From a bacterium (lineage in GTDB: Bacteria; Patescibacteriota; Minisyncoccia; Phycocordibacterales; CAIZIN01), in NCBI GenBank assembly GCA_031409775.1, contig JANNXY010000042.1, forward strand, positions 165-64,164: 64,000 nt of DNA, in the 5' to 3' direction. The notes under the pieces were generated by a model. The model was not told where the DNA came from and did not search any database. It was given only the letters and a program-made list of their open reading frames with translations. This document shows positions 3,179-54,374 of this stretch, piece after piece. The position numbers and the translations under genes are program-made. Within the stretch, counting starts at the first letter, position 1. The number at the start of each line of letters is the position of its first letter.

Positions 3179-4960
3179 TTATGACAATTTCTCTAGCCTA
3201 GCTATATCTTCCTCGATAGATTTGAGCCCCGCTTCAAAGAATTCCGGCTTAGAGGTATCGACGCCGATGTCCTTAAATATCTGATACGGTGATTTGGAAC
3301 CACCAGCAGACAAGAACTCTTTTATCTTGTTTATGAAACCCTTGTCTTCTTTGTACTTGGCATAGAGCGCTTTGGAAATTATCTGACCATAAGCGTAGGA
3401 GTAGACGTAGAAGAAATATCTAAAGTGAGAAACGTAGACAAATGAATATCCCTCGTCTGGCTTCACATCCATCGCTTTACCTATGTAGCTCTCGATATGC
3501 TTCTTGTATAAGTCGGCGTACTCCCTGCTCGAAAGTGCCCCTTTTTGCCTCACCAAGTTGTGCATTTCGAGCTCGAAGTTAAAGAAAGCGATCTGGCGGA
3601 ATATGGTAGACATGTCATCCTGGATACGATCGAACAGGGCTATTTTCTTTTCTTTCTCTGACATCATTTCAAACACTTTCTCGAATGCAATGTTCTCGAA
3701 GAATGTTGAAGCAACTTCGGCAACAGAAATAGTATAGTTTTCATACAACACCGGCTGGCTACGAGAAAGTTCCGAATGTATCGCATGTCCCATCTCGTGA
3801 GCTAGAGTAGTATATGAGTTCAAGTTGTCCGTGTGATTGAGGAGAATTATGGTTGGTATATCGTGGCCGTTATTGCAAAATGCACCAGTTCTCTTGCCTT
3901 TCATAGGATAAACATCTATCCTCCCTGACTCTGCCATACTGAGTAGTATATTGCTGAATTTCACATCAGCACTAGCAAATGATTCTGCCGCCAAATCTAC
4001 CGCTTTGTTGAAAGGGATTTTCATCTTGGTCTTGCCTATACTTATCGAAGTGTCTGCTATGCGGAGCTTCTTTAGCTTGAGTAGCTTGGCTTTGAGTTTG
4101 TAGAACTTATGTGAAATGTAGAATTTATCAGTTATAGTATTGACCAAAGTCTCTATAGAATTCAAATCATTCTGGTAACCCACAACAGTTAGCTCATATG
4201 GTTTAGAGACATTGCGTAGATCATCGTCAATTTTCTTGTTGGTAACTACAGCGTTGAGCTCGGCTTCTGCAATAAATGAAATACTTTTTAGCTTCTGTGA
4301 TATCAGGTCACGAAGCTTGTAGCGGTCGGATTTGTTTAGCTCATTTATCATTCCTATCGCTTTACCCATCGGTAGCTTCTTGCCTTTCCATACTATCTGC
4401 TGCTGGTCCTGGAGCTTGCCTGAAACATCTGTCCACATGTTGTAGGCAGGCTGACGCTTGAGGTTGATGATCTTTTCTTCGGCTTCAGTTAAATTGTATT
4501 TGGCAGTAATAAAAATCCTTTCCAAGAAATATTTGTAACCTCCAAGAGTTTTATTAGTTAGAAATTCTTTTTGTTTATCTTTATCAATCTTACCAAGAGC
4601 AATTTCAAAGAAAATAATCTGGTTCGCAGCCATAGTTAGTCTGTTCTCCATCTTGTTTAACATCGCACGCATTGTGTCATTGTTACTATCCTTTTCTAAA
4701 AGCATCGACAGATACCAACCCGGCTTCCAAGTGCCTGCGGTTCTGTTTAGATTTTCCCAGTCTTCGAGTGCTTTGGCCAAACCTTCAGAAGTTTCTAGAT
4801 AATCAGATTTGTCTTTGTATTTCTTGGCAAACTTCCAGTAAACTTTCTCAATCATTTTGCAATCTTCTTCGATCCGAGGATCACTGATAGATTTGTAAAT
4901 ATCACTAAAATCCCATTCGGTCTTATACTTTGTATTTTTGCTGGTTTTTAAGTTTTTCAT
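3179..4960 (-). CDS. pepF: oligoendopeptidase F (peptidase M3B)
   Basis: 593 aa; HEMGH zinc-binding HExxH motif and overall PepF-like sequence (LAHEMGHAIHSE). Confidence 0.85.
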   Translation of the reverse strand: MKNLKTSKNTKYKTEWDFSDIYKSISDPRIEEDCKMIEKVYWKFAKKYKDKSDYLETSEGLAKALEDWENLNRTAGTWKPGWYLSMLLEKDSNNDTMRAMLNKMENRLTMAANQIIFFEIALGKIDKDKQKEFLTNKTLGGYKYFLERIFITAKYNLTEAEEKIINLKRQPAYNMWTDVSGKLQDQQQIVWKGKKLPMGKAIGMINELNKSDRYKLRDLISQKLKSISFIAEAELNAVVTNKKIDDDLRNVSKPYELTVVGYQNDLNSIETLVNTITDKFYISHKFYKLKAKLLKLKKLRIADTSISIGKTKMKIPFNKAVDLAAESFASADVKFSNILLSMAESGRIDVYPMKGKRTGAFCNNGHDIPTIILLNHTDNLNSYTTLAHEMGHAIHSELSRSQPVLYENYTISVAEVASTFFENIAFEKVFEMMSEKEKKIALFDRIQDDMSTIFRQIAFFNFELEMHNLVRQKGALSSREYADLYKKHIESYIGKAMDVKPDEGYSFVYVSHFRYFFYVYSYAYGQIISKALYAKYKEDKGFINKIKEFLSAGGSKSPYQIFKDIGVDTSKPEFFEAGLKSIEEDIARLEKLS

Positions 4961-4969
4961 CTAGCCAAT

Positions 4970-5545
4970 CTAACATATATCCCGAAGGATACCAAAATCC
5001 TTTACCAAAGTATCTTTCAATTTCTGATTATAGATTGCGGCTGCGGGGTGGTAGAGCGGGATGATTTTTACTTTACCCCATTTAGAATCTGCGAGATATG
5101 ACTTGCCATGTGCAGCGGAAATTGGCTCGATCTCATAACTCAAGCCAAATTTATCCATAATATAATTCATAGAATAACGACCGAGAGTGGCGATGACTTT
5201 CGGCTTGATTATTTCTAATTCCTGATCTAGATGTGGTCCGTACAATCTGATTTCCTCGGGAGTTGGATCGCGGTTCTCTGGCGGGCGGTCGTTTACGATA
5301 TTGGTGATGTAGATATCATCTCGGCTTAGGTTTACCGACTCGAGCAATCCATCTAGAATCTTCCCTGCTGCACCACAGAAAGGTTTGCCAGATTTGGCCT
5401 CATTGCGGCCTGGAGCCTCCCCTACGAACACGATCTCAGCTGTGTGACTTCCCTCACCTACCACAGGTAAGTAGCCGTTTTCGGTGCGATATTTGTAGAG
5501 GGGTAGCTTTGTATTATTTATGAGTTCTTTGTAAATAGAGTCCAT
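4970..5545 (-). CDS. uracil-DNA glycosylase superfamily protein (family-4-like)
   Basis: 191 aa; GEAPG motif (motif A of family 4/5 UDGs) and a C-terminal HPAA motif (YHPAAAIY). Only two Cys residues, so probably no Fe-S cluster. A TATAAT box lies 6 nt upstream of the ATG, suggesting a leaderless transcript. Confidence 0.7.
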   Translation of the reverse strand: MDSIYKELINNTKLPLYKYRTENGYLPVVGEGSHTAEIVFVGEAPGRNEAKSGKPFCGAAGKILDGLLESVNLSRDDIYITNIVNDRPPENRDPTPEEIRLYGPHLDQELEIIKPKVIATLGRYSMNYIMDKFGLSYEIEPISAAHGKSYLADSKWGKVKIIPLYHPAAAIYNQKLKDTLVKDFGILRDIC

Positions 5546-5840: not shown

Positions 5841-6284
5841 TTGCTCACAGGTCGTTGGGCTAGTTCCCTCGCTGTAGTCTGGATATCGTATGAGGCTTTC
5901 AATGCTTTGCTTATTATACCACACTATGATAATGTGCAAGCAGAAAAACATCGACTTATGCACCATAATACATTATTCCACTTTGGTGAAGCTGCAATTT
6001 CACATGCAGAATTATGTGCTGAAACACTTCTCAATGCCGATCCAGATAAAATGCTTCACAGTTTGGATAAGGATGGTTTCTACTACATGCTCTATGGAGA
6101 TGAACTTAAGTATTTGATAATCTTTAGCAGATTCTTTGATCCTGAAGCGAATTTTGTTACGCTGCGCGGTTGCCCTACTGGTCCTGGGAGACAAGCTGGT
6201 AGGGACGAGATAATGAGACATATTGGGTCAGCAAAGAGATTTGCTACGGAGGTACTGGAAAGATGCAAAGAGCTCAGAGCCTAG
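5841..6284 (+). CDS. hypothetical protein (uncertain ORF)
   Basis: 147 aa ORF with no recognisable motifs. It overlaps conflicting ORFs on both strands, so the coding status is unresolved. Confidence 0.25.
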   Translation: MLTGRWASSLAVVWISYEAFNALLIIPHYDNVQAEKHRLMHHNTLFHFGEAAISHAELCAETLLNADPDKMLHSLDKDGFYYMLYGDELKYLIIFSRFFDPEANFVTLRGCPTGPGRQAGRDEIMRHIGSAKRFATEVLERCKELRA

Positions 6285-6576: not shown

Positions 6577-7413
6577 TTAGCATCCACAGAGATCCTTGAT
6601 GTCTTGCATAATCTGATCCTTCTTCTCTAGAAGCGACGGCATAGCGTGCAATATATCCTCGCGATCTTTGAGCGTGACACAGTCCACAATCTTCTGGGAA
6701 ATTATATACTGCTTCTCTGCTGTGGTAAGTGACGGCAGACATGTCACGGGGTGAATACCTGTCTCGATGATCATGTCATGCAGGTGACCCTTGGCTGGAT
6801 AGTTCCACCCGATCATGTTCACACCAGCGCAGGTGCCGTATTGGATGGCCTTCTCTGTAAATTTAGTATTGGTGATAAGCAATCCATCTGTCATCTGCTT
6901 CTGTCCATCAGGAGTTGTAACTTGTACATTGCGCAAGTCGTCGAAACGGGATTTGATATATAGAGCGACCTTGAGGTCGGATTTGGCACCCAGCTCGCTA
7001 TGGAATTTCACCTCGCCTAGGATAAGTGTCTGATCATTCCATGCCACTACATCTACCTCGTGATCAACGCACGTACCTTGGATAATTCTGCCAGTTTCTA
7101 CATTGTAACCCTTCTTGCGCAGTATTGCTGCGACGAACTGCTCGAATGGGAATCCCGTAGGACCGAACTCTGCGATAGATCGGCGGAGCGAGTAACGGAG
7201 TGCGGGAGTCCTACCAACCTTGTCATGGAGCAAGTCAAATGCTCTACGGTAAATAACATTGGTAGTTACAGGCTCTTTGATCCAAGCAGAAATTTCTTCC
7301 GATATTTCCTTTGCTGTTATAACAGATGCACCGGCTCGCTCTAGCGAGCTGCGTAGCTTCTGTGCGTCGAATTCTTCTTCGGTTCCGTCGGTTTTGAGTA
7401 TCAGGGGTTTCAT
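6577..7413 (-). CDS. ATP-cone domain protein fused to a PD-(D/E)xK (Mrr-like) restriction-endonuclease-fold domain
   Basis: The N-terminal ~90 aa resembles an ATP-cone (MKPLILKTDGTEEEFDAQKL...). The central region carries a D...EVK nuclease motif (CVDHEVDVVAWNDQTLILGEVKFH). It lies 10 nt upstream of the MGMT-like gene. Confidence 0.55.
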   Translation of the reverse strand: MKPLILKTDGTEEEFDAQKLRSSLERAGASVITAKEISEEISAWIKEPVTTNVIYRRAFDLLHDKVGRTPALRYSLRRSIAEFGPTGFPFEQFVAAILRKKGYNVETGRIIQGTCVDHEVDVVAWNDQTLILGEVKFHSELGAKSDLKVALYIKSRFDDLRNVQVTTPDGQKQMTDGLLITNTKFTEKAIQYGTCAGVNMIGWNYPAKGHLHDMIIETGIHPVTCLPSLTTAEKQYIISQKIVDCVTLKDREDILHAMPSLLEKKDQIMQDIKDLCGC

Positions 7414-18016: not shown

Positions 18017-19087
18017 TTAGACCTTGAACTCCATTACATCCCCATCCTTCACAATGTATTCCTTGCCTTCTGTGCGCCAGTTGCCTTTCTTTAGTAATTC
18101 CTCCCAGGATATAACATCAGCTTTGATGAACTTCTCCTCAAAGTCACCATGGATCGCTGCGCCTGCCTGCGGCGCTGTCGAACCGTCTAGTATGGTCCAG
18201 GCACGAGTCTCCTTCTCCCCTGTTGTGAAATATGTTGCGAGGTTCAGTAGCTTGTAACCGGTCTTTATAAGGTCGTCTACTCCATCTGAGCTTGCCCCGA
18301 GTTCTTTGCGGAACATTTCTTTCTCTTCGCCCTGGAAGTCTTTGAGCTCATGCTCAACCCCCGCGTCAACAATCACATAGGTAAAACTATTTTTATTTAA
18401 AAATTCAACAAGCTTCTGAAAACGCTCATCATTGGTTTCGTCGAGGTTTGTCGCACCAGCCTTCTTATTGAGTACATACATAAATGGCTTCATGGTAAGC
18501 AGATGTAAATGCTTCGCTATCACCTTTTCTTCTTTGGTTAGTTTGCATTGGTTGGCGAGTAGTCCCGTCTCTAGTACCACAGCGAGTTTCTCACATACAG
18601 CAAGCTCGGCGATGGCATCCTTCTTGCCAGCCTTTACGTCTTTGCCTAGATTACCTATACGCCTCTTTACCGTTTCTTGGTCAGCCAATATTAATTCCAA
18701 ATTAATAACTTCGATATCAGACAATGGATCGATCTTGTTGTTTACATGGAGTATATTTCCGTCTTCAAATATTCTCACCACTTCGCATATCGCATCCGTC
18801 TCGCGGATATTCGACAGGAATGCATTGCCGAGCCCTTCGCCTGCAGATGCGCCCTTTACAAGCCCTGCGATGTCTACGAATTCGATCGCTGCTGGGATCG
18901 TCTTCTGAGTTTTACTAAACTCCGCGAGCTTGTACAGCCTCTCGTCCGGCACCGCAACCACCCCTACAGACGGGTCAATGGTTGCAAATGGATAATTGGC
19001 AATAAGCACACCCTTATTTGTAAGTGCATTAAACAACGTCGATTTCCCCACATTTGGCAGTCCTACAATTCCTAAAGATAATTTCAT
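18017..19087 (-). CDS. ychF: ribosome-binding ATPase YchF (Obg family, TGS domain)
   Basis: G1 motif GIVGLPNVGKSTLFNALT; 356 aa with a C-terminal TGS-like region. Confidence 0.9.
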   Translation of the reverse strand: MKLSLGIVGLPNVGKSTLFNALTNKGVLIANYPFATIDPSVGVVAVPDERLYKLAEFSKTQKTIPAAIEFVDIAGLVKGASAGEGLGNAFLSNIRETDAICEVVRIFEDGNILHVNNKIDPLSDIEVINLELILADQETVKRRIGNLGKDVKAGKKDAIAELAVCEKLAVVLETGLLANQCKLTKEEKVIAKHLHLLTMKPFMYVLNKKAGATNLDETNDERFQKLVEFLNKNSFTYVIVDAGVEHELKDFQGEEKEMFRKELGASSDGVDDLIKTGYKLLNLATYFTTGEKETRAWTILDGSTAPQAGAAIHGDFEEKFIKADVISWEELLKKGNWRTEGKEYIVKDGDVMEFKV

Positions 19088-19185
19088 AGTTTATTGATAG
19101 TAACACACTGGATAAAATTGGAAAGTGAAATCACAATTTGATCGAGGAGAGTTCTAGCGACAACTCTTCATTAACCGACGAACCA

Positions 19186-19215
19186 TTGACATACTGGTAA
19201 TATATATGCTATAAT
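19186..19215 (+). promoter_or_regulatory. near-consensus sigma70 promoter (TTGACA-N18-TATAAT)
   Basis: TTGACA at 19186-19191 and TATAAT at 19210-19215. A ~115 nt leader follows, containing a 14-bp imperfect stem (GTTGGTGAGGGATT...AATCCCCCACCAAC). Confidence 0.5.
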
Positions 19216-19338
19216 AGAGACGCTAATAGTTCTTTGAATAAGTTGGTGAGGGATTTTAGGATAGAACCTATTCTATTATACAATCCCCCACCAACTCCCA
19301 GAAGGAGAAGGTGTACCGGGAAGAAAAACAACGTAGAT

Positions 19339-19659
19339 ATGAAAATCCAACTCCACAACATCCTGCTCGTCCTCATCGCCGGTCTCCTCATCAATATCAC
19401 AGTGAAGACGCCTGAACCGGCAAAGTCTGTCGCTACGTCTGGCTACCAGATAGTCACGGCTGAAGTCGTCTCGCGCGGCACGGTGGGTGCATATGGTCAC
19501 GCCCAACGTGGCTACATGCTCCGCACGCCAACCGGTTTGAAGTTCGTTCCTGATGGCGGGATGAACCTTCCAGAAAACGTCAAAGCGGTCTTTCTGACCA
19601 CCTACCCCAACGGCAACAGCGAGATCACTGGCACGTTCTACTACGAGAGCCAGCTCTAA
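19339..19659 (+). CDS. small secreted/membrane-anchored hypothetical protein
   Basis: Start reassigned to MKIQLHNILLVLIAGLL, an N-terminal hydrophobic signal-like segment preceded by a GGAAG RBS. Local GC is clearly higher than in the flanks. The longer ORF 19234.. is rejected. Confidence 0.45.
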   Translation: MKIQLHNILLVLIAGLLINITVKTPEPAKSVATSGYQIVTAEVVSRGTVGAYGHAQRGYMLRTPTGLKFVPDGGMNLPENVKAVFLTTYPNGNSEITGTFYYESQL

Positions 19660-19701
19660 ATCTTCTGCGGAGTCGGCATCACAACAGGTTCCAATCCTGT
19701 A

Positions 19702-19740
19702 AAACGCACCTCGCTACGGCTTGGTGCGTTTCTTTATTTC
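19702..19740 (+). terminator. rho-independent terminator (AACGCACC...GGTGCGTT + TCTTTATTT)
   Basis: 8-bp stem followed by a T-rich run, directly after the 19339..19659 gene. Confidence 0.6.
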
Positions 19741-19886
19741 CTCACCATCCAGCTCAGCTTCGGTAACTTAATCACAAACTCAAATGGTACCCACTTCTCT
19801 ATCTCACTATGTTGGGTAGAAAACTGACCATACCTTAAGATAATTTCATAGCTAGGTGATAGTAGCATAAAAACTGAAGAATTTGA

Positions 19887-20570
19887 ATGGAAAGTCTTCA
19901 GAACTCTGATATACTATTAATTATGAATAATAAAATCTTAATGGTAGGAATAGCAGCACTTACTGTAGGCGTTATTGGTGGCTATGCCATTGCCAATACA
20001 AATATAGTAGACGCACCAATTAGTAATCAGAGGCAAGCGGATGCCACCCCTATGGGCATGCATCGTATGTCCGGCGACTCAATGATGGTTAACGGGAACA
20101 CAAACACAGGTAGTATGAACAATATGGACCATATGATGTCTATGATGGTACAAAGTGAGCGAGAGTTCATCGATGGAATGATACCGCACCATCAGGAAGC
20201 AGTGGACACAGCCAAGGAAGTAATGGCACGAGGTGGTACAACCCCTGAAATAAAACAATTGGTTCAAAACATTGTGGTAGCTCAAGAAAAGGAAATTGCT
20301 GAGATGAAAATGTGGTATAAAACTTGGTACAAAGAAGCATACAAGGAAGATGACAAATACAAACCTATGATGCGAGAACTTTCTTCTCTTTCGGGGAAAG
20401 AACTAGACCAAACATTTCTCGAGGATATGATAATGCATCATATGGGAGCGATTATGATGGCCCAAAGTGTTCAACCGCATATTGAACATCAGGAGATGGA
20501 GAAACTCACTCAAGCTATTGTCACGAGCCAATCAGCTGAAATCAGACAGATGAGACAAATGCCCAGGTAG
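19887..20570 (+). CDS. DUF305-family protein with Met-rich N-terminal tract (putative periplasmic copper/metal-binding protein)
   Basis: Paired MIPHHQEAV and MIMHHMGAIMMAQ motifs characteristic of DUF305. N-terminal TM/signal. Met-rich stretch MGMHRMSGDSMMVNGNTNTGSMNNMDHMMSMMV reminiscent of MxM/MxxM Cu(I) motifs. Confidence 0.6.
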   Translation: MESLQNSDILLIMNNKILMVGIAALTVGVIGGYAIANTNIVDAPISNQRQADATPMGMHRMSGDSMMVNGNTNTGSMNNMDHMMSMMVQSEREFIDGMIPHHQEAVDTAKEVMARGGTTPEIKQLVQNIVVAQEKEIAEMKMWYKTWYKEAYKEDDKYKPMMRELSSLSGKELDQTFLEDMIMHHMGAIMMAQSVQPHIEHQEMEKLTQAIVTSQSAEIRQMRQMPR

Positions 20571-38793: not shown

Positions 38794-39813
38794 CTAAAAA
38801 GCCAGTGCCGCTGCGGACTCAAGTATCTGCTTTACCGATGAGCTCTGGTCGAGCAGGTACGATCGCATCTCTAGAATCATCCTCTGGTTCCTAATAGGTT
38901 TGTTGGTGTTACGCATAGCTGTGATTATCTGGTCCAATAAATCAACTGCACGGTCCTTGCCAAATTTCTCTGATTTGATTCCTTCGACTATTTTACTACT
39001 TTCTAGCAATAGCTCTTTTACGCTCAGTTTTATATCATTTATTTTATTACTTACTTTCGAATCAAATTTGGATTCCAGTCGCGATCTAAGAGTTGGTAGA
39101 ATACGTTCAGGGAATTGAGTAACGAAGAAAAAAACAGTATCTCGCGGCGGTTCCTCTACTACTTTGAGCAATGTGTTCTGTGCTTCTGCGTTCATGGTTA
39201 TAAACTCGAGCATCACTATCCTTTTCTTGTTTCCAAATGTGTGTCTAGATAAAGCATCTTTGACTTCGCGAGCTGTATCTATCTTGAAGTTGGTTTCTCT
39301 GTATACAAGCAACTCTAAATTACCTTTATCCTCTTTCGATAAAATCCCTTCTGCTATTTCTTTGGTCAAGAGGTATGCGTGATGCATCGGGGGTATTTTA
39401 GCATTTCCCCTCCTTATCCTAGGAGGGGTGGTCGTAGACCGGGGAGGTAGATTCTCTTGAATTTTACTTAAAACTCCACTTAGATTATTTCTTACTTCAC
39501 TATTCCAAAATCTTATAACGCTCAAATTTAATTCTTTGAAAAATTCTGTTCTTACTTTATCATATTCTTGATCTTCACTATGCGAATTCCCGTCGACTTC
39601 AATAATCAAACTCTTTTCACTGCAATAGAAATCAACTACATATCTGCCTATCCCCGTCTGCCTTCTGAATTTATAACCCAAGCCATTTCCTTTCAATTTT
39701 GACCAAAGTAAAACTTCCTCTTTGCTCATATTATGTCGGAGAAATCTTCTTTTTTCCTTTGAATTCGCTAGATTAAATATTCTATCAGTATTCATAGAAG
39801 AATTATACACCAC
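38794..39813 (-). CDS. holB: in-frame fusion ORF: DUF559 (Vsr-like endonuclease fold) domain + DNA polymerase III delta' (HolB)-like C-terminal part
   Basis: aa ~7-120 match DUF559 (KFRRQTGIGRYVVDFYCSEKSLIIEVDGNSHS...VIRFWNSEV). aa 143-339 match clamp-loader delta' (MHHAYLL..., LLKVVEEPP, LRSRL). The listed GTG start lies inside the inverted repeat, so the likely DUF559 start is the ATG at 39795 and the likely native holB start is the ATG at 39387. Confidence 0.65.
   Translation of the reverse strand: MVYNSSMNTDRIFNLANSKEKRRFLRHNMSKEEVLLWSKLKGNGLGYKFRRQTGIGRYVVDFYCSEKSLIIEVDGNSHSEDQEYDKVRTEFFKELNLSVIRFWNSEVRNNLSGVLSKIQENLPPRSTTTPPRIRRGNAKIPPMHHAYLLTKEIAEGILSKEDKGNLELLVYRETNFKIDTAREVKDALSRHTFGNKKRIVMLEFITMNAEAQNTLLKVVEEPPRDTVFFFVTQFPERILPTLRSRLESKFDSKVSNKINDIKLSVKELLLESSKIVEGIKSEKFGKDRAVDLLDQIITAMRNTNKPIRNQRMILEMRSYLLDQSSSVKQILESAAALAF
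39403..39447. repeat. right inverted repeat of DUF559 cassette (also encodes PPRSTTTPPRIRRGNAK linker)
   Basis: See the mobile_element entry; contains palindrome CCCCTCC-N8-GGAGGGG. Confidence 0.6.
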
Positions 39814-39854
39814 CCCGGCCTCCGGCCACCCCTCCTAGGATAAGGAGGGGAAAT
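39811..39854. repeat. left inverted repeat of DUF559 cassette (supplies TATAAT 7 nt upstream of the DUF559 ATG)
   Basis: Reverse complement matches 39403-39447; contains palindrome CCCCTCC-N8-GGAGGGG. Confidence 0.6.
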
Positions 39855-39855
39855 A

Positions 39856-40869
39856 CTACCTCTTTGACAATATGGTTTTCTTGTATGCATCTAGGTGTTC
39901 GAGTGCAGTACCTGTGCCTTTGGCCACACAATGCATCGGGTCCTCGGCAAGCGTGCATTTAACACCCGTACGTCGATAGACAAGTTCTGGGAAGTTGCGT
40001 AGTAGTGATGAGCCACCTGTCATAATTATACCCTGGTCGATAATATCTGATGCGAGCTCTGGTGGGGTTTCCTGTAATACATCCTTTATAGCCTTGATCA
40101 TCTCGCGAAGCTCTTTGGAAATTGCTTTCACTATTTCGTTAGTCTTGATCTCTGTTGATCGTGGAAGTCCAGTGAGGAAATCACGGCCTTTGACTATCAC
40201 CACGAGCTCTTCGTCGAGGAAGACCGCCGAACCTATTTCTAGCTTTATTCGTTCGGCGGTCTTGTCCCCTATCGCTAGGTTGAAATTCTTCTTTATATAA
40301 TCAGTTATTGCTGCATCTATCTTGTTGCCTGCACATTTGACTGATGTAGATGCTACTATACCTCCGAGCGAGATCACCGCCACATCTGTAGTACCACCTC
40401 CAATATCCACTACCATGTGACCTTTGGGTTCATATATCGGTATCCCTGCGCCGATCGCAGCAAGTATGGGCTCTTTGACCACATAAGCGTTCTTGGCTCC
40501 AGCTTTGATAGTCGCCTCGATCACTGCCCTACGCTCCGTTGAAGTGATTCCTGCGGGAACAGAAACCATTACCTCTGGTTTCCAGATATTCCATTTACCC
40601 AATGATTTGTTCATATAGTATCGGAGCATTGCTTCTGTCACACGATAGTCAGCGATCACCCCGTCTTTGAGCGGTCTATAGGCTATGATGTTCTCTGGGG
40701 TTCGACCTATCATAGCCTTGGCATCGAGCCCAACAGCCAGAATCCTATTGTCCTGTTCTGATACAGCTACAACAGAAGGTTCGTTTAGAACTATGCCTTG
40801 ACCAGGGACAAAAACCAGTGTATTTGCAGTTCCTAGATCTATTCCTAATTTGGGTGAAAACCAGCTCAT
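39856..40869 (-). CDS. MreB-like actin homolog (second paralog)
   Basis: LGIDLGTANTLVF and DIGGGTTD motifs; 337 aa; separate from the mreBCD operon. Confidence 0.85.
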   Translation of the reverse strand: MSWFSPKLGIDLGTANTLVFVPGQGIVLNEPSVVAVSEQDNRILAVGLDAKAMIGRTPENIIAYRPLKDGVIADYRVTEAMLRYYMNKSLGKWNIWKPEVMVSVPAGITSTERRAVIEATIKAGAKNAYVVKEPILAAIGAGIPIYEPKGHMVVDIGGGTTDVAVISLGGIVASTSVKCAGNKIDAAITDYIKKNFNLAIGDKTAERIKLEIGSAVFLDEELVVIVKGRDFLTGLPRSTEIKTNEIVKAISKELREMIKAIKDVLQETPPELASDIIDQGIIMTGGSSLLRNFPELVYRRTGVKCTLAEDPMHCVAKGTGTALEHLDAYKKTILSKR

Positions 40870-42795: not shown

Positions 42796-43166
42796 TTTGC
42801 ACCCAGATAATCTTTGATTCTTTGTTTACTCTCATTTTCAGATTCACCTTTGAAGTAAATTTCAATAAATTCAACGGTAGTTGTCGCAGGATAAAAGGCA
42901 TAGATGATGCGAATACCACTTTTTGCCCCACGACCCTTGAGCGACTTACAGGCAAACTTCTTTAGTTTGCAAATTTTTATTTTATCTGTACAAAAGTTGG
43001 GAATCAAGAAAATGGAATTAATATATTCCAAACCTTCATGGTAAGGCTCTATTGTTGCAATCTTGGCGAACTCTAAATCATCTGTAAGAGACCTAAACTT
43101 CTTTTGCAGAAACTTTAAATCCCTTTGGAATTCACTTGTTTCTCTATAAATAATCTTGATCGTCAT
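42792..43166 (-). CDS. RelE/ParE/HigB-superfamily toxin-like protein
   Basis: 124 aa; C-terminal KSGIRIIYAFYP...IEIYFKGESE resembles the RelE/HigB core (GxRxIY...I). Overlaps the upstream HTH-Panacea gene by 23 nt. Confidence 0.5.
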   Translation of the reverse strand: MTIKIIYRETSEFQRDLKFLQKKFRSLTDDLEFAKIATIEPYHEGLEYINSIFLIPNFCTDKIKICKLKKFACKSLKGRGAKSGIRIIYAFYPATTTVEFIEIYFKGESENESKQRIKDYLGAN

Positions 43167-43962
43167 AATTTCTTACAGAAGTTTTCTCAGTCCGATAAAA
43201 AACACCTTCATATTTAATTGGCTGATTTTCTTTGGTAACGATCCATGGGATATCCTCATGAGAGTAGTTGCTCAATTCTGTGGCATTTTTATTGCTTAAT
43301 CTCGCCAATACTTCATCGATGTGCTTTATTTCATTTGCACTGAGTACAGAGAGGTTAGCCTGCCTCTTTGGTAGGTATTTGGTCTGCCCATGTTGGAAAT
43401 AATTACTTTTTACGGTTTCTAGCTCGCCTTTGGACTCCATTGATTCTATGACCTTTTTGAACTCCACTGGAGTCGGGCCAAAATGATTCTTGATATATGT
43501 CGCACCAATGAGCTGTTCTTCGAACTTTTCGTAATAATCAAAGTCGATAAAGTAGAGAAGTTTGTACAGAACCGTCATCCCGACATTTGGCTTGCCACCA
43601 ACCCTTTCGAGTATATAAAGCAATACCTCTTTGAACTTCTTGATGTTTTTCTGCGGGACATCTATGCGCATTCCTATCGTTTCTTTTATTTCCTTTTCGT
43701 CCATTATTCTTATATCCAATTCGAAATTTTTTTTTCCAGAAATGAGGTTTTCAATTTTAATTTCGAAAATCTGTGCGATCTTTTGAGCTTGGGAAATAGT
43801 CAGCTCTTTCTTGCCTTTCTCCACCTCAATGTAGCTTGGGCGTGAAATACCAATCTTTTCAGCAATATAAGCCTGTGACAAATTTGCCTCGTTACGTAAT
43901 TCTTGTAGAAATTTATGTTTAATCATATCCAATATTATATACTCGCCATATTGATATGTCAA
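43144..43962 (-). CDS. XRE-family HTH + Panacea (DUF4065) domain antitoxin-like protein
   Basis: N-terminal HTH (LSQAYIAEKIGISRPSYIEVEKGKKELTISQAQKIAQIF). The central GMTVLYKLLYFIDFDYYEKFEEQLIGATYIKNHFGPTPVEF matches the DUF4065/Panacea KLxKLLYF...GxP...GPV pattern. Confidence 0.55.
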   Translation of the reverse strand: MTYQYGEYIILDMIKHKFLQELRNEANLSQAYIAEKIGISRPSYIEVEKGKKELTISQAQKIAQIFEIKIENLISGKKNFELDIRIMDEKEIKETIGMRIDVPQKNIKKFKEVLLYILERVGGKPNVGMTVLYKLLYFIDFDYYEKFEEQLIGATYIKNHFGPTPVEFKKVIESMESKGELETVKSNYFQHGQTKYLPKRQANLSVLSANEIKHIDEVLARLSNKNATELSNYSHEDIPWIVTKENQPIKYEGVFYRTEKTSVRNYDDQDYL

Positions 43963-44759: not shown

Positions 44760-45467
44760 ATGAAAAAATCAAAAACTTTTAAATTATTATCTCGCGCCGA
44801 GCGTGATGAAATAGAAATACTACTAGAAAAAGAATATTCTGGGAGATCAATTGCCAAAGCACTCTGTCGTTCTCCGAATACTATCTCGTATGAGATTAGG
44901 AAAAACGGTGGCAAGAAAAAGTACAAGGCTCAAAATGCTCACCAATATGCACAGACCAGAAGAAAAGATACCAAAACACAGTGGAAAAAGATTGAACACA
45001 ATAGCACTCTCAAAACCTTCATCATTGAGAAATTGAAATTACATTGGAATTCCGATGAAATCGCTGGATACATGAGGCGAAAAAAGCTAAAGTTTTATGC
45101 CTCAAAAACAGCTATCTATGAGTGGCTTAGGAGTGAGTACGGACAACAATATTGCAAGCATCTCTACTCTGGTCGATACAGGGTCAAACGCCACAAGACG
45201 AGCAAGAAGAAACGGGAGATGATTCCTAATCGAGTGAGCATTGAGAAGCGTCCAAAGGCCATTCTGAAGCGAGGTAGGTTTGGTCACTGTGAAGCTGATA
45301 CTGTAGTCTCAGCCAAAGATGGCTCTGGAGGAGTCTCAGTGTTTCAAGAAAGAAAATCTCGCTTGTATCAGGCAAAAAAGGCGCTAGGTATGAGTGCCAA
45401 AGAACATGTGATTAATCAAGAACCCCGCGGCAGAGCCGTCCCCTCGCAAAGCCTCGGCGGGGTATGA
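44760..45467 (+). pseudogene. IS30-family transposase remnant (N-terminal HTH and start of DDE domain only), interrupted by IS200-type insertion
   Basis: N-terminal HTH region and GHCEADTV (IS30 GHWEGDxI equivalent) followed by ERKSRLY. Homology ends at ~45430, where the IS200 right end begins. No C-terminal DDE/E part is found downstream. Confidence 0.65.
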
Positions 45468-45995
45468 ATTGATGCATGGTCTAGTGCCAAAGGGTGAGCT
45501 GTACTGATTCGACCGTCTTTCCCTGGTTTTCTATGTATTTCTTTACTATATCCCAGTTTCCACGCTCGCCTACTGTAGCGAGATAGTAACCATCACTCCA
45601 GAACTCTCCTCCCCACAGATCTTTACGCAGTTCAGGAAATCGCCTGAATAGTTGTTTGGCTGTAATGCTTTTGAACATCGTCACTACTTCGATACCTGAA
45701 TACTTCGGGTGATAAGAGCAGAGTATGTGAATATGGTTAATATCGCATCCTAGGTTTTCAAAATCGATTTCGTATCTTTCACCGATTTCCTTGGCGATTT
45801 CTAATACGGCGAGCTCCACTGGTTTGTCTAACAGAGCTTTGCGGTATTTGACGGGAAAGACTATGTGATAGTGGGTATTGTATGCGCAGTGATTGCTTTT
45901 CTTGACCATGCATCTAGTATATCTGAAAACCAAGGGTTTTCAGACTTTCCTTAGCAGAAACCCCGCCCTAGAAGGGACGGGGAATGGGGGAGATT
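45425..45995 (-). mobile_element. IS200-type element (tnpA only) with subterminal GC-rich hairpins
   Basis: Left-end hairpin CCCCGCCCTAGAAGGGACGGGG at ~45948-45975 and an imperfect palindrome at ~45436-45470 flank tnpA. The element is inserted into the IS30 transposase gene. Boundaries are approximate. Confidence 0.5.
45481..45933 (-). CDS. tnpA: IS200/IS605-family Y1 (HUH) transposase TnpA
   Basis: 150 aa; HUH motif HIHIL (INHIHILCSY) and the conserved catalytic Tyr region (WSDGYYLATVG) typical of IS200 TnpA. Confidence 0.85.
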   Translation of the reverse strand: MVFRYTRCMVKKSNHCAYNTHYHIVFPVKYRKALLDKPVELAVLEIAKEIGERYEIDFENLGCDINHIHILCSYHPKYSGIEVVTMFKSITAKQLFRRFPELRKDLWGGEFWSDGYYLATVGERGNWDIVKKYIENQGKTVESVQLTLWH

Positions 45996-46013: not shown

Positions 46014-46685
46014 TTATAATTGTAATTTTTTTGAGTCTGAAATACTCTCTGATAATTCATTAAATGTATACTGGTAGATTTTCCAATCAGAATAATCAAT
46101 TATTTCTTCTGGTTCATCGAATGTAAGCCAGTCGTCTTTAATATTCCCTGAACAATGCTTAAGTTTATTTATATATCTGCCAACAGCGCTGTCTCTATTC
46201 TCTTCATTTTTCTTATAATCTAGACCTATTTTTCCTAAAGTTATTTTTAAGTCAATTAAAGTTTTAGAGGGGATAAATAATTCTGCCTTTCCATTATTAA
46301 TTATATGGTCAGTTATCTCTCGATACCTTAACGCCTCCTCTTTTTGAGATGTTTCTTCATATTTTACACCCAATTCCACTAATTTACTGCAATATAATTT
46401 ATATATCTTCCATTGATTGAAAGACAAATCATTCGTTACCTCATCGTAGGTTTTTTGGATGCGTTGCGAGTATACTGCCACAAGAAAACAAATTGATACC
46501 AAAATAAATCCCTCAGAGGGTGATAACTCATCCTGCATAATTATGAAACCAATAAATATAATCAAAAAAGGATGTTTAACGATAAATTTTTTAATAGAAT
46601 ATAATACTTTACGCATGTTACTTATTATTAAGATTTTGATTACAAACGGATAAAGCAATACTAAGTGCCATAAAAAAACCTCCAC
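46014..46685 (-). CDS. hypothetical membrane-anchored protein (223 aa) in very AT-rich DNA
   Basis: Two N-terminal TM helices then a charged Lys/Glu-rich cytoplasmic domain. Local GC is far below the rest of the window; no homology recognised. Confidence 0.4.
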   Translation of the reverse strand: MEVFLWHLVLLYPFVIKILIISNMRKVLYSIKKFIVKHPFLIIFIGFIIMQDELSPSEGFILVSICFLVAVYSQRIQKTYDEVTNDLSFNQWKIYKLYCSKLVELGVKYEETSQKEEALRYREITDHIINNGKAELFIPSKTLIDLKITLGKIGLDYKKNEENRDSAVGRYINKLKHCSGNIKDDWLTFDEPEEIIDYSDWKIYQYTFNELSESISDSKKLQL

Positions 46686-52571: not shown

Positions 52572-53390
52572 CTATACCGAAGGCTTCTTGGCCAGAGCTT
52601 TAATTTCTTCGAAAATTCTGTCGAGCCCTACAAGTGCTTTGACAAAGAATTTGCTTGCTCCGAGCTTGAAACATTTTTCCATATCGTTTCTTTGGTCTAG
52701 ATTAGACAATACTATTACTGGAATCGGCTTAGTTCTTTCATTTGCTTTTATCTTTTCTAGGATTTCGAATCCACTCGCCCCTGGCAATACTAGATCTAGA
52801 ATAATAGCATCATACATCGATTTCTCGAGAAATACATAAGCTTCCTCGCCACTTTTAGCCAAGGAATAATTGGCACCAGTTGCAGCCAGCTTACGACTTA
52901 CAATAGATGCTAGAAACATATCGTCTTCTACCCACAATACAGATGTACCTTTGAGATTTACACCTTCAGATGCAACCCCTTCGACATCGATAATACTCTC
53001 AGTTGATGAAGTAGGATTCGATGCCTTGCCTAGAACTTTGTTTACACTTTCAAATACTTCCTCTGGAGTAATATTCGCCTTGATGAGCCTGTCTGATACG
53101 CTCAACTTGTCTAATCTATCAGACTGAACAAGTTGACCAGAGTTGGATATGAGTATTACTGGAATTTTGAGCAGCTCGCTATCTTTGGCCCTGGCCTCTA
53201 GAACTTGATAGCCATCCATTGACGGGATTTCGAGATCGAGCAATACGACGTCAGGTGACATCATTGTCATCTCTGACAGTCCTACTGCCCCATCCCTGAC
53301 CCAGCCCACATCGAATCCTTTGAGTTGAAAGAATTTCTCTAGTATTTTGCCCATATTTTCGTCATCTTCAATAATTAGAATTTTCGTCAT
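52572..53390 (-). CDS. response regulator with two tandem receiver (REC) domains and no output domain
   Basis: REC1 (ILIIEDDENMGK...VVLLDLEIPSMDG...) and REC2 (VLWVEDDMFLAS...AIILDLVLPGASG...), each with the conserved Asp and Lys. Confidence 0.8.
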   Translation of the reverse strand: MTKILIIEDDENMGKILEKFFQLKGFDVGWVRDGAVGLSEMTMMSPDVVLLDLEIPSMDGYQVLEARAKDSELLKIPVILISNSGQLVQSDRLDKLSVSDRLIKANITPEEVFESVNKVLGKASNPTSSTESIIDVEGVASEGVNLKGTSVLWVEDDMFLASIVSRKLAATGANYSLAKSGEEAYVFLEKSMYDAIILDLVLPGASGFEILEKIKANERTKPIPVIVLSNLDQRNDMEKCFKLGASKFFVKALVGLDRIFEEIKALAKKPSV

Positions 53391-53399
53391 GTTATGTTG

Positions 53400-54374
53400 T
53401 TATCCTGATTTTGGTAAACTAAATGTAAACACTGAACCTTTGCCCTCCTCTGACTCGAACCCTACGGTTCCTCCGTGTTTCTCTATTATACTTTTAACTA
53501 TAAATAAACCCAAGCCCGAACCATTGGCAACTTCCTTGGAAGCGTTTCTAGCTCTGTAGAATTTGCTAAATATGTATGCCTGCTGGTCTTTGGGTATACC
53601 TATCCCCGTATCTCTAACGCTTACATTTACGTTGTTGTGCTCTTCGTATACTTGGATTGTAATACTACCATTGTCTGGTGTATATTTTACAGCATTCTCT
53701 AGCAAGTTTTGGATTACCCCACGAATTTTTTCCTTGTCAGCAAATGTATTACATATATCCCCACTACATCCAGCATAGTGCAAATTAATCTTCTTTAAAT
53801 CTGCTGCCGGCTTCACTTCATATGTGACATCATCTATCAACTCACCGATATTGACAGCAACCTTCATCAAATCGTTTCTACCATTATCCAACTTGTCTGC
53901 GAGCAACATTCCTTCTACAAGTGATATCAAGTGATTATTACTCTCCTCTCCTCTGCGCAGAAATTCCTCTTGGTCCAAGTTCAGCGGACCAAGTTCCTTT
54001 TTTAGTAGCATTAGTAACATCCACTTCATCGCAGATAGTGGTGTCCTCATCTGATGAGCGATAATAGAGATGAATTCGGACTTCTGATTATCAATCATTC
54101 GTAACTTGTCATTGGCCTTCATGAGTTCTAGATCCCTCTTTATGAGTAGTTTAGACGATTCATCTTGTTCTTTGATCAACCCTGTGAGCTTGAGTCTCTG
54201 ATCTACGCCGAAACTCACGATCTTTTTAAAGAATGCTACTAGAAATACAATATTGATGAGAAGTAGGTAGCTCGTATATATGAGTTCGACTTCCTCATGT
54301 GTGAGCTTCACAGCAAGTATAATACCTACTGAAATCAAAAGCTCTGTAATTATAAGAAATGGTATGGTCCACAT
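53400..54374 (-). CDS. sensor histidine kinase (HisKA + HATPase_c) with two N-terminal TM helices
   Basis: H-box IAHQMRTPLSAMKWML; N box (LLENAVKYTP), G1 (VRDTGIGIP) and G2 (GSGLGLFIVKS). Confidence 0.85.
   Translation of the reverse strand: MWTIPFLIITELLISVGIILAVKLTHEEVELIYTSYLLLINIVFLVAFFKKIVSFGVDQRLKLTGLIKEQDESSKLLIKRDLELMKANDKLRMIDNQKSEFISIIAHQMRTPLSAMKWMLLMLLKKELGPLNLDQEEFLRRGEESNNHLISLVEGMLLADKLDNGRNDLMKVAVNIGELIDDVTYEVKPAADLKKINLHYAGCSGDICNTFADKEKIRGVIQNLLENAVKYTPDNGSITIQVYEEHNNVNVSVRDTGIGIPKDQQAYIFSKFYRARNASKEVANGSGLGLFIVKSIIEKHGGTVGFESEEGKGSVFTFSLPKSG

Follow-up and report, generated by a model that had tools for sequence, protein, structure and literature searches.

Parts of several described systems recur at a locus in a 64,000-nucleotide (nt) stretch of contig JANNXY010000042.1, assigned to the Patescibacteriota and here called the window, in which a promoter and a structured leader precede a 106-amino-acid (aa) open reading frame (ORF1) and, further downstream, a gene for a DUF305 protein (positions 19186 to 20570). 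Phage morons are autonomous promoter-ORF-terminator units that lie between genes and often have a deviant base composition. The attC sites of integron cassettes follow the consensus R'' (RYYYAAC) ... R' (GTTRRRY). Replacement-type hypervariable loci exchange surface-antigen, pilin, or effector/immunity genes via conserved flanks. Displacement of effector/immunity genes is a comparison case for such loci (PMC5361080). In Synechocystis, the exported protein CopM, rich in Met and His, binds Cu(I)/Cu(II) and contributes to copper tolerance and resistance (PMC4335983).

At this locus, two separate units adjoin. Unit 1 (19186-19739) carries the promoter, a conserved structured leader, ORF1, and a terminator, while unit 2 (19888-20570) is a native, CopM-like DUF305 gene. 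Unit 1 lies in an insertion accompanied by a duplication of the ychF start, and behind the same leader in other genomes ORF1 is replaced by different ORFs. We consider it probable that the two units are independent and became neighbors through an insertion at the ychF promoter, one being a leader-driven, replaceable ORF and the other a native CopM-like gene. The DUF305 half belongs to a known kind, and the cassette combines the known themes of autonomous cassettes, hypervariable replacement loci, and structured leaders. The initial annotation of this DNA had listed the promoter, the hairpin, the GC-rich 106-aa ORF, the terminator, and the DUF305 gene with its paired HH motifs and Met-rich tract, all of which are present where it had placed them, and had read them as one module driven from the consensus promoter.

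Unit 1 opens with a predicted consensus sigma-70-type promoter, classed as such by its hexamers and by a spacing within 16-18 nt (TTGACA-18-TGcTATAAT, 19186-19215, plus strand). TTGACA occupies 19186-19191, the 18-nt spacer ends in TG, and TATAAT occupies 19210-19215, which places the inferred transcription start site (TSS) at ~19222. The site has a score of 12/12 together with an extended -10 and was the sole 12/12 site in a 4-kb scan. Perfect TTGACA-N16-18-TATAAT promoters were observed twice in the 64-kb window as compared to 0.07 expected, an enrichment over shuffled sequence. From the inferred TSS to the ATG of ORF1 at 19339, the leader measures ~117 nt. The unit closes with a predicted intrinsic terminator, found by folding (19702-19739, plus strand), in which a 9-bp stem (AAACGCACC/GGTGCGTTT) is followed by the tail CTTTATTT. 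The stem-loop (19702-19731; -17.7 kcal/mol, z -5.6) is GC-rich and runs into the U-tract CUUUAUUU, as in Rho-independent terminators, and its 12-nt loop caused it to be overlooked by a simple terminator scanner. Raised GC is confined to ORF1 and the 3' region (~19300-19770). Unit 1 would thereby form a self-contained cassette of promoter, leader, membrane-anchored β-barrel protein, and terminator. It resembles a moron in having its own promoter, a single small ORF, its own terminator, a deviant GC content, and a position between unrelated genes. Unlike a moron, it does not lie in a prophage, its neighbors are housekeeping genes (ychF, a tRNA synthetase, and a pseudouridine synthase), it has no phage DNA or protein match, and it has a long structured leader conserved across genomes, which is foreign to the moron concept.

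The conserved core of the leader (19225-19314, plus strand) was delimited by alignment, an RNAalifold consensus, a covariance model, and pairwise identity. Its center is P2, an imperfect hairpin of ~23 bp with a 1x1 mismatch (19241-19296, plus strand; -26.3 kcal/mol, z -5.3), identified by folding and from its metagenome counterparts. The outer portion of P2 consists of two 14-nt arms, GTTGGTGAGGGATT (19243-19256) and AATCCCCCACCAAC (19283-19296), which are complementary at 13 of 14 positions with a single A.C mismatch. P1, a pyrimidine box UUCUUU (19230-19235, plus strand) predicted in the window to pair with GGAGAA (19304-19309), encloses P2. Just 5' of the ORF1 ATG lies a purine-rich tract, GGGAAGAAAAAC... 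(19319-19338, plus strand), which was delimited by alignment and ensemble folding and is mostly unpaired in the latter; it is a probable ribosome-loading region.

Scanning for both hairpin arms identified counterparts in four Joint Genome Institute (JGI) metagenome contigs (L094-L097), in which the outer arms match the search pattern exactly and the hairpins are near-identical overall. L094 and L095 are identical across a 4.2-kb overlap, which leaves three distinct sequences beyond the window and four including it. Homology is not limited to the ~54-nt hairpin and spans both flanks, from a 5' box ATAGTTCTTTnAAnAAA through a 3' box (CTC...CAGAGAAGG...GGGA) to the ATG. Over the 91-nt core, the window is 76-78% identical to the others, which are 89-92% identical among themselves; in the same genomes, about half of the flanking synonymous sites are substituted, such that the leader is far more constant than neutral sites. 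Covariance-model scores of the core range from 110 to 146 bits, and hairpin z-scores across the family range from -5 to -10. The common RNAalifold fold has P1 (UUCUUU/AGAGAA, with a U-G pair kept in all four) enclosing P2, and a box GGGA(A/U)(A/G)A is shared by all four leaders (alignment columns 103-111). L094, L096, and L097 have a promoter, TTGACT-17-TGaTACATT, at the position equivalent to that of the window promoter. These comparisons support the view that the stem is a genuine conserved element and not a chance hairpin.

The leader is probably a cis-acting RNA element, although four sequences give no covariation. Action at the RNA level is favored because the orientation of the hairpin and its distance to the ATG are fixed, the changes preserve wobble pairing, and the mismatch is conserved. 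It may stabilize or process the mRNA or set its translation: a long double-stranded RNA stem with an internal mismatch is the type of substrate that RNase III or an RNA-binding protein could recognize, and it could alternatively provide 5' stabilization. Structured 5' leaders (riboswitches, RNase III-processed leaders, or stabilizers) are likewise noncoding 5' untranslated regions, conserved beyond their gene, fixed in position, and stably folded. The leader described here differs from them in that it has no Rfam family, no multi-stem ligand pocket, no terminator/anti-terminator alternative that we could find, and no ligand clue downstream. An Rfam search, which had been proposed for the leader, matched no family: neither the window leader nor the L097 leader was assigned among the 4227 families of Rfam 15 at gathering or permissive thresholds. 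The best match of the window leader was a plant microRNA hairpin model (19 bits versus a threshold of 110), with a similar result for L097, and the microRNA and snoRNA hairpin matches of both leaders were discarded as spurious. A switch that sequesters the ribosome-binding site (RBS) was also considered and rejected; the pyrimidine box can be paired by eye with either purine box, but the RBS stays largely unpaired in ensemble folding and no alternative structure recurs consistently. Just past the inferred TSS, L094, L096, and L097 have a small extra hairpin with a U-run (GCUGGCUUUCGAGCCAUUUU) that is missing from the window leader (L094, reverse strand, ~6610-6640; L096, ~6160-6190; L097, reverse strand, ~780-810), and which may be a 5' stabilizer or an attenuator.

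While the leader is conserved, the ORFs behind it are not. In all four cases, an ORF of 106-110 aa begins 37-42 nt past the hairpin (37-39 nt in the other CPR genomes), encodes a single N-terminal hydrophobic helix, belongs to no Pfam family, and has a GC content of 0.45-0.55 as compared to 0.40-0.43 for its contig. The four ORFs nevertheless fall into three unrelated sequence types, represented by ORF1, by L094, and by L096 and L097; in pairwise alignments the L096 and L097 ORFs are related (z 20), with protein-level homology and a proportion of nonsynonymous differences (pN) below that of synonymous differences (pS), and all remaining pairs have z <3. L094 and L096 are syntenic through a threonyl-tRNA synthetase (ThrRS) gene, a PKD-domain membrane protein gene, the leader, the ORF, and the 3' terminator region, after which L096 runs on into gyrB and the L094 contig ends. 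Their DNA homology of 79-84% stops no more than 2 nt from the ATG and returns with the last 5-6 nt of the ORF. Between L096 and L097, pS of the small ORF is 0.79 (saturated) as compared to 0.49 in the adjoining gyrB, and pS of the PKD-domain gene between L094 and L096 is also 0.49. Since synonymous sites of the ORF are saturated beyond those of its flanks, the ORF alleles are older than the flanks, which points to replacement from a diverse allele pool via conserved flanks and not just to rapid evolution of the protein. Judged from the four genomes, raised GC is a property of the allele family and not evidence of a distant GC-rich donor. Retention of the leader and 3' region together with exchange of the ORF identifies ORF1 as one allele of a replaceable gene for a small surface protein and not as a copper gene. 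Separately, homology between L094 (reverse strand, 3340-5172) and L096 (3599-4693), at 79-86%, is broken inside ThrRS, and L094 carries two small membrane ORFs in addition to those of L096; these observations suggest further recombination mosaicism around the leader locus.

This pattern is that of hypervariable loci in its syntenic neighbors, conserved flanks, and unrelated or saturated alleles that diverge beyond flanking synonymous sites. It differs in that the exchanged unit is a single ORF of ~320 bp, bounded by the start codon and a point a few nt from the stop, and in that a structured leader makes up the 5' arm. Together with the 3' region, this conserved leader may also provide the homology arms by which alleles are replaced, and the small proteins would be surface-exposed and under diversifying pressure. 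More tentatively, and as a somewhat doubtful extension of these observations, the leader and terminator could form a conserved "expression socket" in Paceibacteria, into which unrelated, membrane-anchored ORFs of ~106 aa are swapped from start to stop at the population level. In that case, the leader would represent a new class of cis-RNA, or an element acting both as RNA and as a recombination arm to keep incoming alleles correctly expressed, and the window would hold a socket relocated to the ychF promoter.

ORF1 itself (19339-19659, plus strand) encodes an N-terminal membrane helix, a linker, and a predicted five-stranded β-barrel. Its hydrophobic segment spans residues 8-24, so that the signal peptide proposed by the initial annotation stands as a hydrophobic N-terminus, but an uncleaved signal-anchor seems a better description of this segment than a cleaved signal peptide. 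Single-sequence AlphaFold2 modeling returned the helix and a compact five-stranded barrel with a pLDDT of 69. An OB-fold domain, whose hallmark is a closed β-barrel of five strands, would be a possible but tentative assignment for this model. ORF1 is an outlier in composition, with a GC content of 0.551, the highest GC at third codon positions (GC3) of 52 window ORFs (0.701; mean 0.453 ± 0.072), and the lowest codon-adaptation index of the same set (0.701; 0.785 ± 0.020). It was confirmed as an ORFan, with no homologue among ~15 billion proteins. A word-indexed search of 5.8 billion clusters returned only ORF1 itself, and a full phmmer search of 1.84 billion representatives added a single match, to the membrane helix alone. 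Nothing was found in viral contigs by tblastn-confirmed scans, nor in phages and plasmids by blastn with the cassette. The public gene call makes the protein 137 aa long by starting at GTG 19246, within the conserved hairpin. This call is most likely too long, with the true start at ATG 19339 (106 aa): the equivalent upstream frame in L094 is closed by a stop codon, and all six Arg codons in frame upstream of 19339 are AGR, as compared to CGN for all three within ORF1. A still longer start at TTG 19234 (141 aa) was rejected together with GTG 19246, as both would place the conserved hairpin in coding sequence.

The position of unit 1 is marked by a direct repeat of 41 nt (19065-19105 and 19827-19867; 80% identity, 762 nt apart), whose local alignment score of 42 compares with 18.1 ± 2.6 for shuffled sequences (maximum 29). 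Copy A (19065-19105, minus strand) contains the functional start of ychF (ATG 19087, MKLSLGIV...), which lies 9 nt downstream of the extended -10 TGTTACTAT, and weaker similarity extends out to ~19037-19130. Copy B is part of a pseudo-ychF fragment (19800-19895, minus strand) that has a ychF-type promoter, TGCTACTAT, followed by ATGAAATTATCTTAA... and by decayed codons 1 to ~17, which read MKLS*GMVSFLPNIV. Positions 19839-19885 are 79% identical over 47 nt to the ychF start and promoter of two relatives (L090 and L091). This flanking duplication identifies the ORF1 cassette as a 762-bp insertion into the ychF promoter and 5' region, with a target duplication of 41 nt and weaker similarity up to ~95 nt. 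The same arrangement, without a base difference across 6.4 kb, is present in an independent Logan assembly. The best relatives of YchF and of the DUF305 protein come from metagenome-assembled genomes labeled Taylorbacteria, Paceibacterota, Parcubacteria, Nomurabacteria, or Kaiserbacteria. In the closest available YchF relatives (80-85% aa identity), synteny is kept downstream of ychF, ORF1 is absent upstream of it, and the upstream genes differ from one relative to the next, which makes the upstream ychF junction a variable spot. In homology-facilitated illegitimate recombination, foreign DNA joins at one end by homology and at the other illegitimately, leaving a partial duplicate of the anchor (PMC3240628). 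A fragment from a related donor, carrying the ychF 5' end and the cassette, could have recombined by homology within ychF at one end and been joined illegitimately around codon 17 at the other.

Unit 2 is expressed from its own predicted promoter, TGGAAA-16-TGaTATACT (19888-19915, plus strand), in which the extended -10 TGATATACT ends 7 nt before ATG 19923, implying a leaderless or near-leaderless mRNA. The gene (19923-20570, plus strand) encodes a 215-aa protein identified by Pfam and Protein Data Bank (PDB) matches and by homologue alignment. Its DUF305 assignment was upheld by a profile search (PF03713, 135.9 bits versus a cut-off of 27, E 1.6e-39, profile positions 2-150 of 151), and its PDB matches are to CopM (5FFA, E 1.7e-26; 5FEJ, E 1.6e-24). 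In all, 1584 homologues were found, with a length of ~217 aa and an alignment that begins MNN..., which places the start at ATG 19923 and not at 19887. The protein has an N-terminal anchor or signal (hydrophobic residues 5-21) and contains 27 Met and 8 His. Among 20 aligned homologues from the candidate phyla radiation (CPR), the paired histidines H89-H90 (MIPHHQEA) and H172-H173 (MIMHHMGA) are invariant. The tract PMGMHRM...MDHMMSMMV of the window protein is invariant or nearly so in the same 20 (as PMGMHRM...MDHMMxMMV), with G45, H47, M49, M55, and M74 invariant, so that the Met-rich tract is a feature of the family. With a GC content of 0.421, GC3 of 0.426, and an adaptation index of 0.76, the gene is native as compared to the window values of 0.453 (GC3) and 0.785.

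The match to CopM of Synechocystis sp. PCC 6803 is full-length (residues 41-213 versus 14-197), and the two proteins share an N-terminal export signal or anchor, two HH motifs, and a very high Met content (27 in 215 aa here, 23 in 196 in CopM). By homology, and from the DUF411 and MauE genes near its counterparts in relatives, the same function of extracytoplasmic copper binding and resistance would be expected, and the protein is most likely exported or membrane-anchored and binds copper outside the cytoplasm; the copper-handling flavor that the initial annotation gave this gene is reasonable. To our knowledge, CPR bacteria lack an outer membrane, and in such a host the protein would be membrane-tethered or secreted and not periplasmic. 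Further differences from CopM are the absence of adjoining copRS or copBAC genes and, in the CPR subfamily, an N-terminal tract of its own (PMGMHRMPDGxMM). In relatives, a Met/Cys-rich membrane protein of 127-133 aa with no Pfam family lies directly upstream of DUF305 in seven of seven loci (L002, 2900-3283; L004, 4578-4958; L005, 3874-4275; and also L003 and L006-L008), with motifs FHMSMGMD, MSDCPFM, and VLCPMNL. From its sequence and position it is a candidate copper-handling partner, and no such gene was found anywhere in the window. In L004, its ATG lies 7 nt past a TGcTATAAT box. DUF411 and MauE genes also lie beside DUF305 in one relative lineage; DUF411 includes CopG-type copper-resistance proteins. 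Contexts of DUF305 in relatives are varied and never adjoin ychF or the leader. No copper exporter, chaperone, regulator, or sensor was found across the window ORFs, and within 5 kb of DUF305 there are no copper-sensing two-component genes, only ychF, a pseudouridine synthase, two hypothetical ORFs, a DHH phosphoesterase, and a Mur ligase. The sole kinase/regulator pair in the window (52572-54374) is 32 kb away. Unit 2 would thus act as a native CopM-like gene with its own promoter, a leaderless mRNA, and an extracytoplasmic copper-binding product. In three of the relatives' contigs of Nomurabacteria type (L005, L007, and L008, positions 1-352), an RVT_1 reverse transcriptase and a bAvd accessory protein, which are components of diversity-generating retroelements, are encoded ~4.5 kb upstream of the DUF305 cluster.

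An alternative to a cis-acting RNA is that the 54-bp palindrome is a double-stranded DNA operator or roadblock at which a dimeric repressor controls the cassette promoter. In favor of such a site, both arms are conserved without compensatory changes, and the inverted repeat is near-perfect and folds similarly well from the two strands. Relative to the inferred TSS, however, the hairpin occupies about +20 to +75 and does not overlap the promoter, and half-sites of ~18-25 bp would be unusually long for an operator. The 1x1 mismatch (A or C opposite C) is retained at the same position in four of four sequences, orientation and ATG distance are fixed, the sense-strand hairpin is more stable than the antisense in three of the four, and the few substitutions in the 3' arm are all transitions that preserve A-U or G-U pairs on the sense strand (columns 43-66, 45-64, and 50-59). 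We consider the operator unlikely. The suggestion that the stem is an operator or an RNA element stands as to a conserved element, present in three other sequences, and four sequences without covariation cannot separate RNA from DNA. Alternatively, the hairpin could be a recombination site, analogous to attC or to the hairpins of HUH transposases, that serves cassette exchange or mobilization. This would suit the exchange of ORFs behind the leader between closely related genomes, the new genomic site occupied by the window cassette, and the presence of an IS200-type Y1 transposase gene in the window (45481-45933); imperfect hairpins with a fixed mismatch are likewise found at attC sites and IS200/IS605 ends, and those of attC stand beside interchangeable short ORFs. 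Read from the outside, however, the arms are GTTGGTG...CACCAAC. This puts GTT and AAC at the outer ends, opposite to the R''/R' order of attC, and the hairpin is 5' of its ORF in a promoter-driven leader, whereas an attC site lies on the 3' side of its cassette ORF. Each locus has a single copy without any array, a scan of the 52 window ORFs of at least 106 aa turned up no integrase, and homology breaks off at the ATG and returns shortly ahead of the stop codon, the former point being 37-39 nt past the hairpin. Saturated synonymous divergence between conserved flanks fits ordinary homologous replacement. We consider a recombination site quite improbable.

The single module of the initial annotation would be a horizontally acquired, metal-responsive copper operon of promoter, leader, ORF1, and DUF305, with the stem as operator or riboswitch. 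The genes do adjoin on the same strand, the DUF305 protein is CopM-like and Met-rich, and ORF1 is predicted to be exported or membrane-anchored, as copper chaperones can be. A strong terminator and the pseudo-ychF fragment nevertheless separate them, and the DUF305 gene has its own promoter. The codon-usage comparison that had been called for was run and separated them as well; ORF1 is the outlier and DUF305 has native values, such that acquisition of a GC-rich module holds for ORF1, which is compositionally foreign and lies in the insertion, but not for the DUF305 gene. In three other genomes the leader drives ORFs with no DUF305 nearby, and the seven DUF305 loci of relatives have other upstream partners and no such leader. 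Across eight related loci with DUF305 or the same leader, ORF1 or the leader never co-occurs with DUF305, which makes their adjacency here incidental. ORF1 contains no Cys, only two His and three Met in 106 aa, and no His- or Met-rich motif, and nothing ties it or the leader to copper or to regulation by metals. A single copper operon is very improbable. We give even less credence to the view that ORF1 is not a gene and that its frame is an accident of a GC-rich noncoding RNA or of decaying foreign DNA. ORF1 does lack homologues, a Pfam family, and a Shine-Dalgarno motif at its ATG, but such motifs are almost lacking from the genome as a whole, and there is no Rfam match. GC at codon positions 1, 2, and 3 (0.55/0.40/0.70) has a coding-like periodicity, the three other leaders are followed at the same distance by ORFs of 106-110 codons with a membrane helix, the L096 and L097 ORFs retain protein homology with pN < pS, and AlphaFold2 returns a compact β-barrel. 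By these sequence features, ORF1 is very likely coding despite having no relatives.

Several observations weigh against parts of our preferred reading of two independent units, with a replaceable ORF behind an RNA leader. In the leader alignment there is only one compensatory pair, and 239 of 500 shuffles did equally well, the four distinct sequences being too similar; as noted above, these sequences do not separate a function at the RNA level from one at the DNA level. When extra 5' sequence is added, P1 drops out of the minimum-energy structure for two of the four. Searched over the window and 550 kb of CPR loci outside it, the covariance model (R1) found no further leader copy, and the leader family may be narrow. 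Its one match in those loci, in L016 (E 0.044), was rejected as an unrelated perfect palindrome, and 17-mer matches to the 3' arm in two viral contigs did not fit the model and were attributed to chance. The AlphaFold2 model of ORF1 is of moderate confidence only, and that of a second allele, the L096 ORF, is poor (pLDDT 55), leaving a fold common to the alleles unproven. A diverged second copy of the ychF promoter and 5' end borders the insert, but the available relatives include none above 85% aa identity that could show the empty site, and neither sliding identity nor GC3 gave a clear breakpoint or crossover within ychF. Homology-facilitated illegitimate recombination fits the geometry of the locus, from which alone this route is drawn.

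The remainder of the window consists of housekeeping genes of a core chromosome and includes a DUF5671 gene. From this gene and the best YchF and DUF305 relatives, the host is a CPR bacterium that probably belongs to the Paceibacteria. Shine-Dalgarno motifs are almost absent upstream of ~50 window ORFs, and in front of many operon-first genes the ATG is separated by only 5-10 nt from a -10-like box (often TGnTAnnnT), implying that leaderless mRNAs are widespread in this genome. Against this leaderless background, a leader of ~117 nt is exceptional. The other perfect promoter of the window, TTGACA-17-TATAAT (43934-43962, minus strand), lies within the 5' end of a listed ORF (43144-43962) for an HTH_3 and SocA/Panacea antitoxin-like protein, placing the true start of that gene further downstream. 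The only gathering-level Rfam match in the window is a SAM riboswitch (RF00162, 5789-5888, minus strand; 44.5 versus 44.4 bits). The minus-strand ORF next to it, a uracil-DNA-glycosylase-superfamily gene (4970-5545), has its own -10 box adjoining the ATG. The Y1 transposase gene (minus strand; PF01797, E 1.4e-35) adjoins one for an HTH_38 protein (44760-45467, plus strand), and 46014-46685 holds an ORF of low GC (0.29) that belongs to no family; this stretch may be a small mobile-element patch. A GC-rich inverted-repeat pair of 50 nt (39399-39448 and 39809-39858; 90% complementary, 360 nt apart) encloses a DUF559 (Vsr-like endonuclease) portion at the N-terminus of an ORF whose remainder is DNA polymerase III delta-prime-like (38794-39813), and the DUF559 part looks like a mobile endonuclease module inserted in or fused to holB.

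The locus bears on the biology of the CPR in several ways. The CopM-like DUF305 subfamily is widespread in this group, with a conserved Met/His tract and recurrent DUF411, MauE, and Met/Cys-rich membrane partners. The locus also documents a probable route of gene insertion in CPR bacteria, by one-sided homology at the promoter of an essential gene. The ~90-nt leader core is missing from Rfam, and the gene behind it is far less conserved. CPR bacteria are episymbionts whose surface and expression control are largely unknown, and a conserved leader tied to a hypervariable surface gene offers a searchable handle on both.

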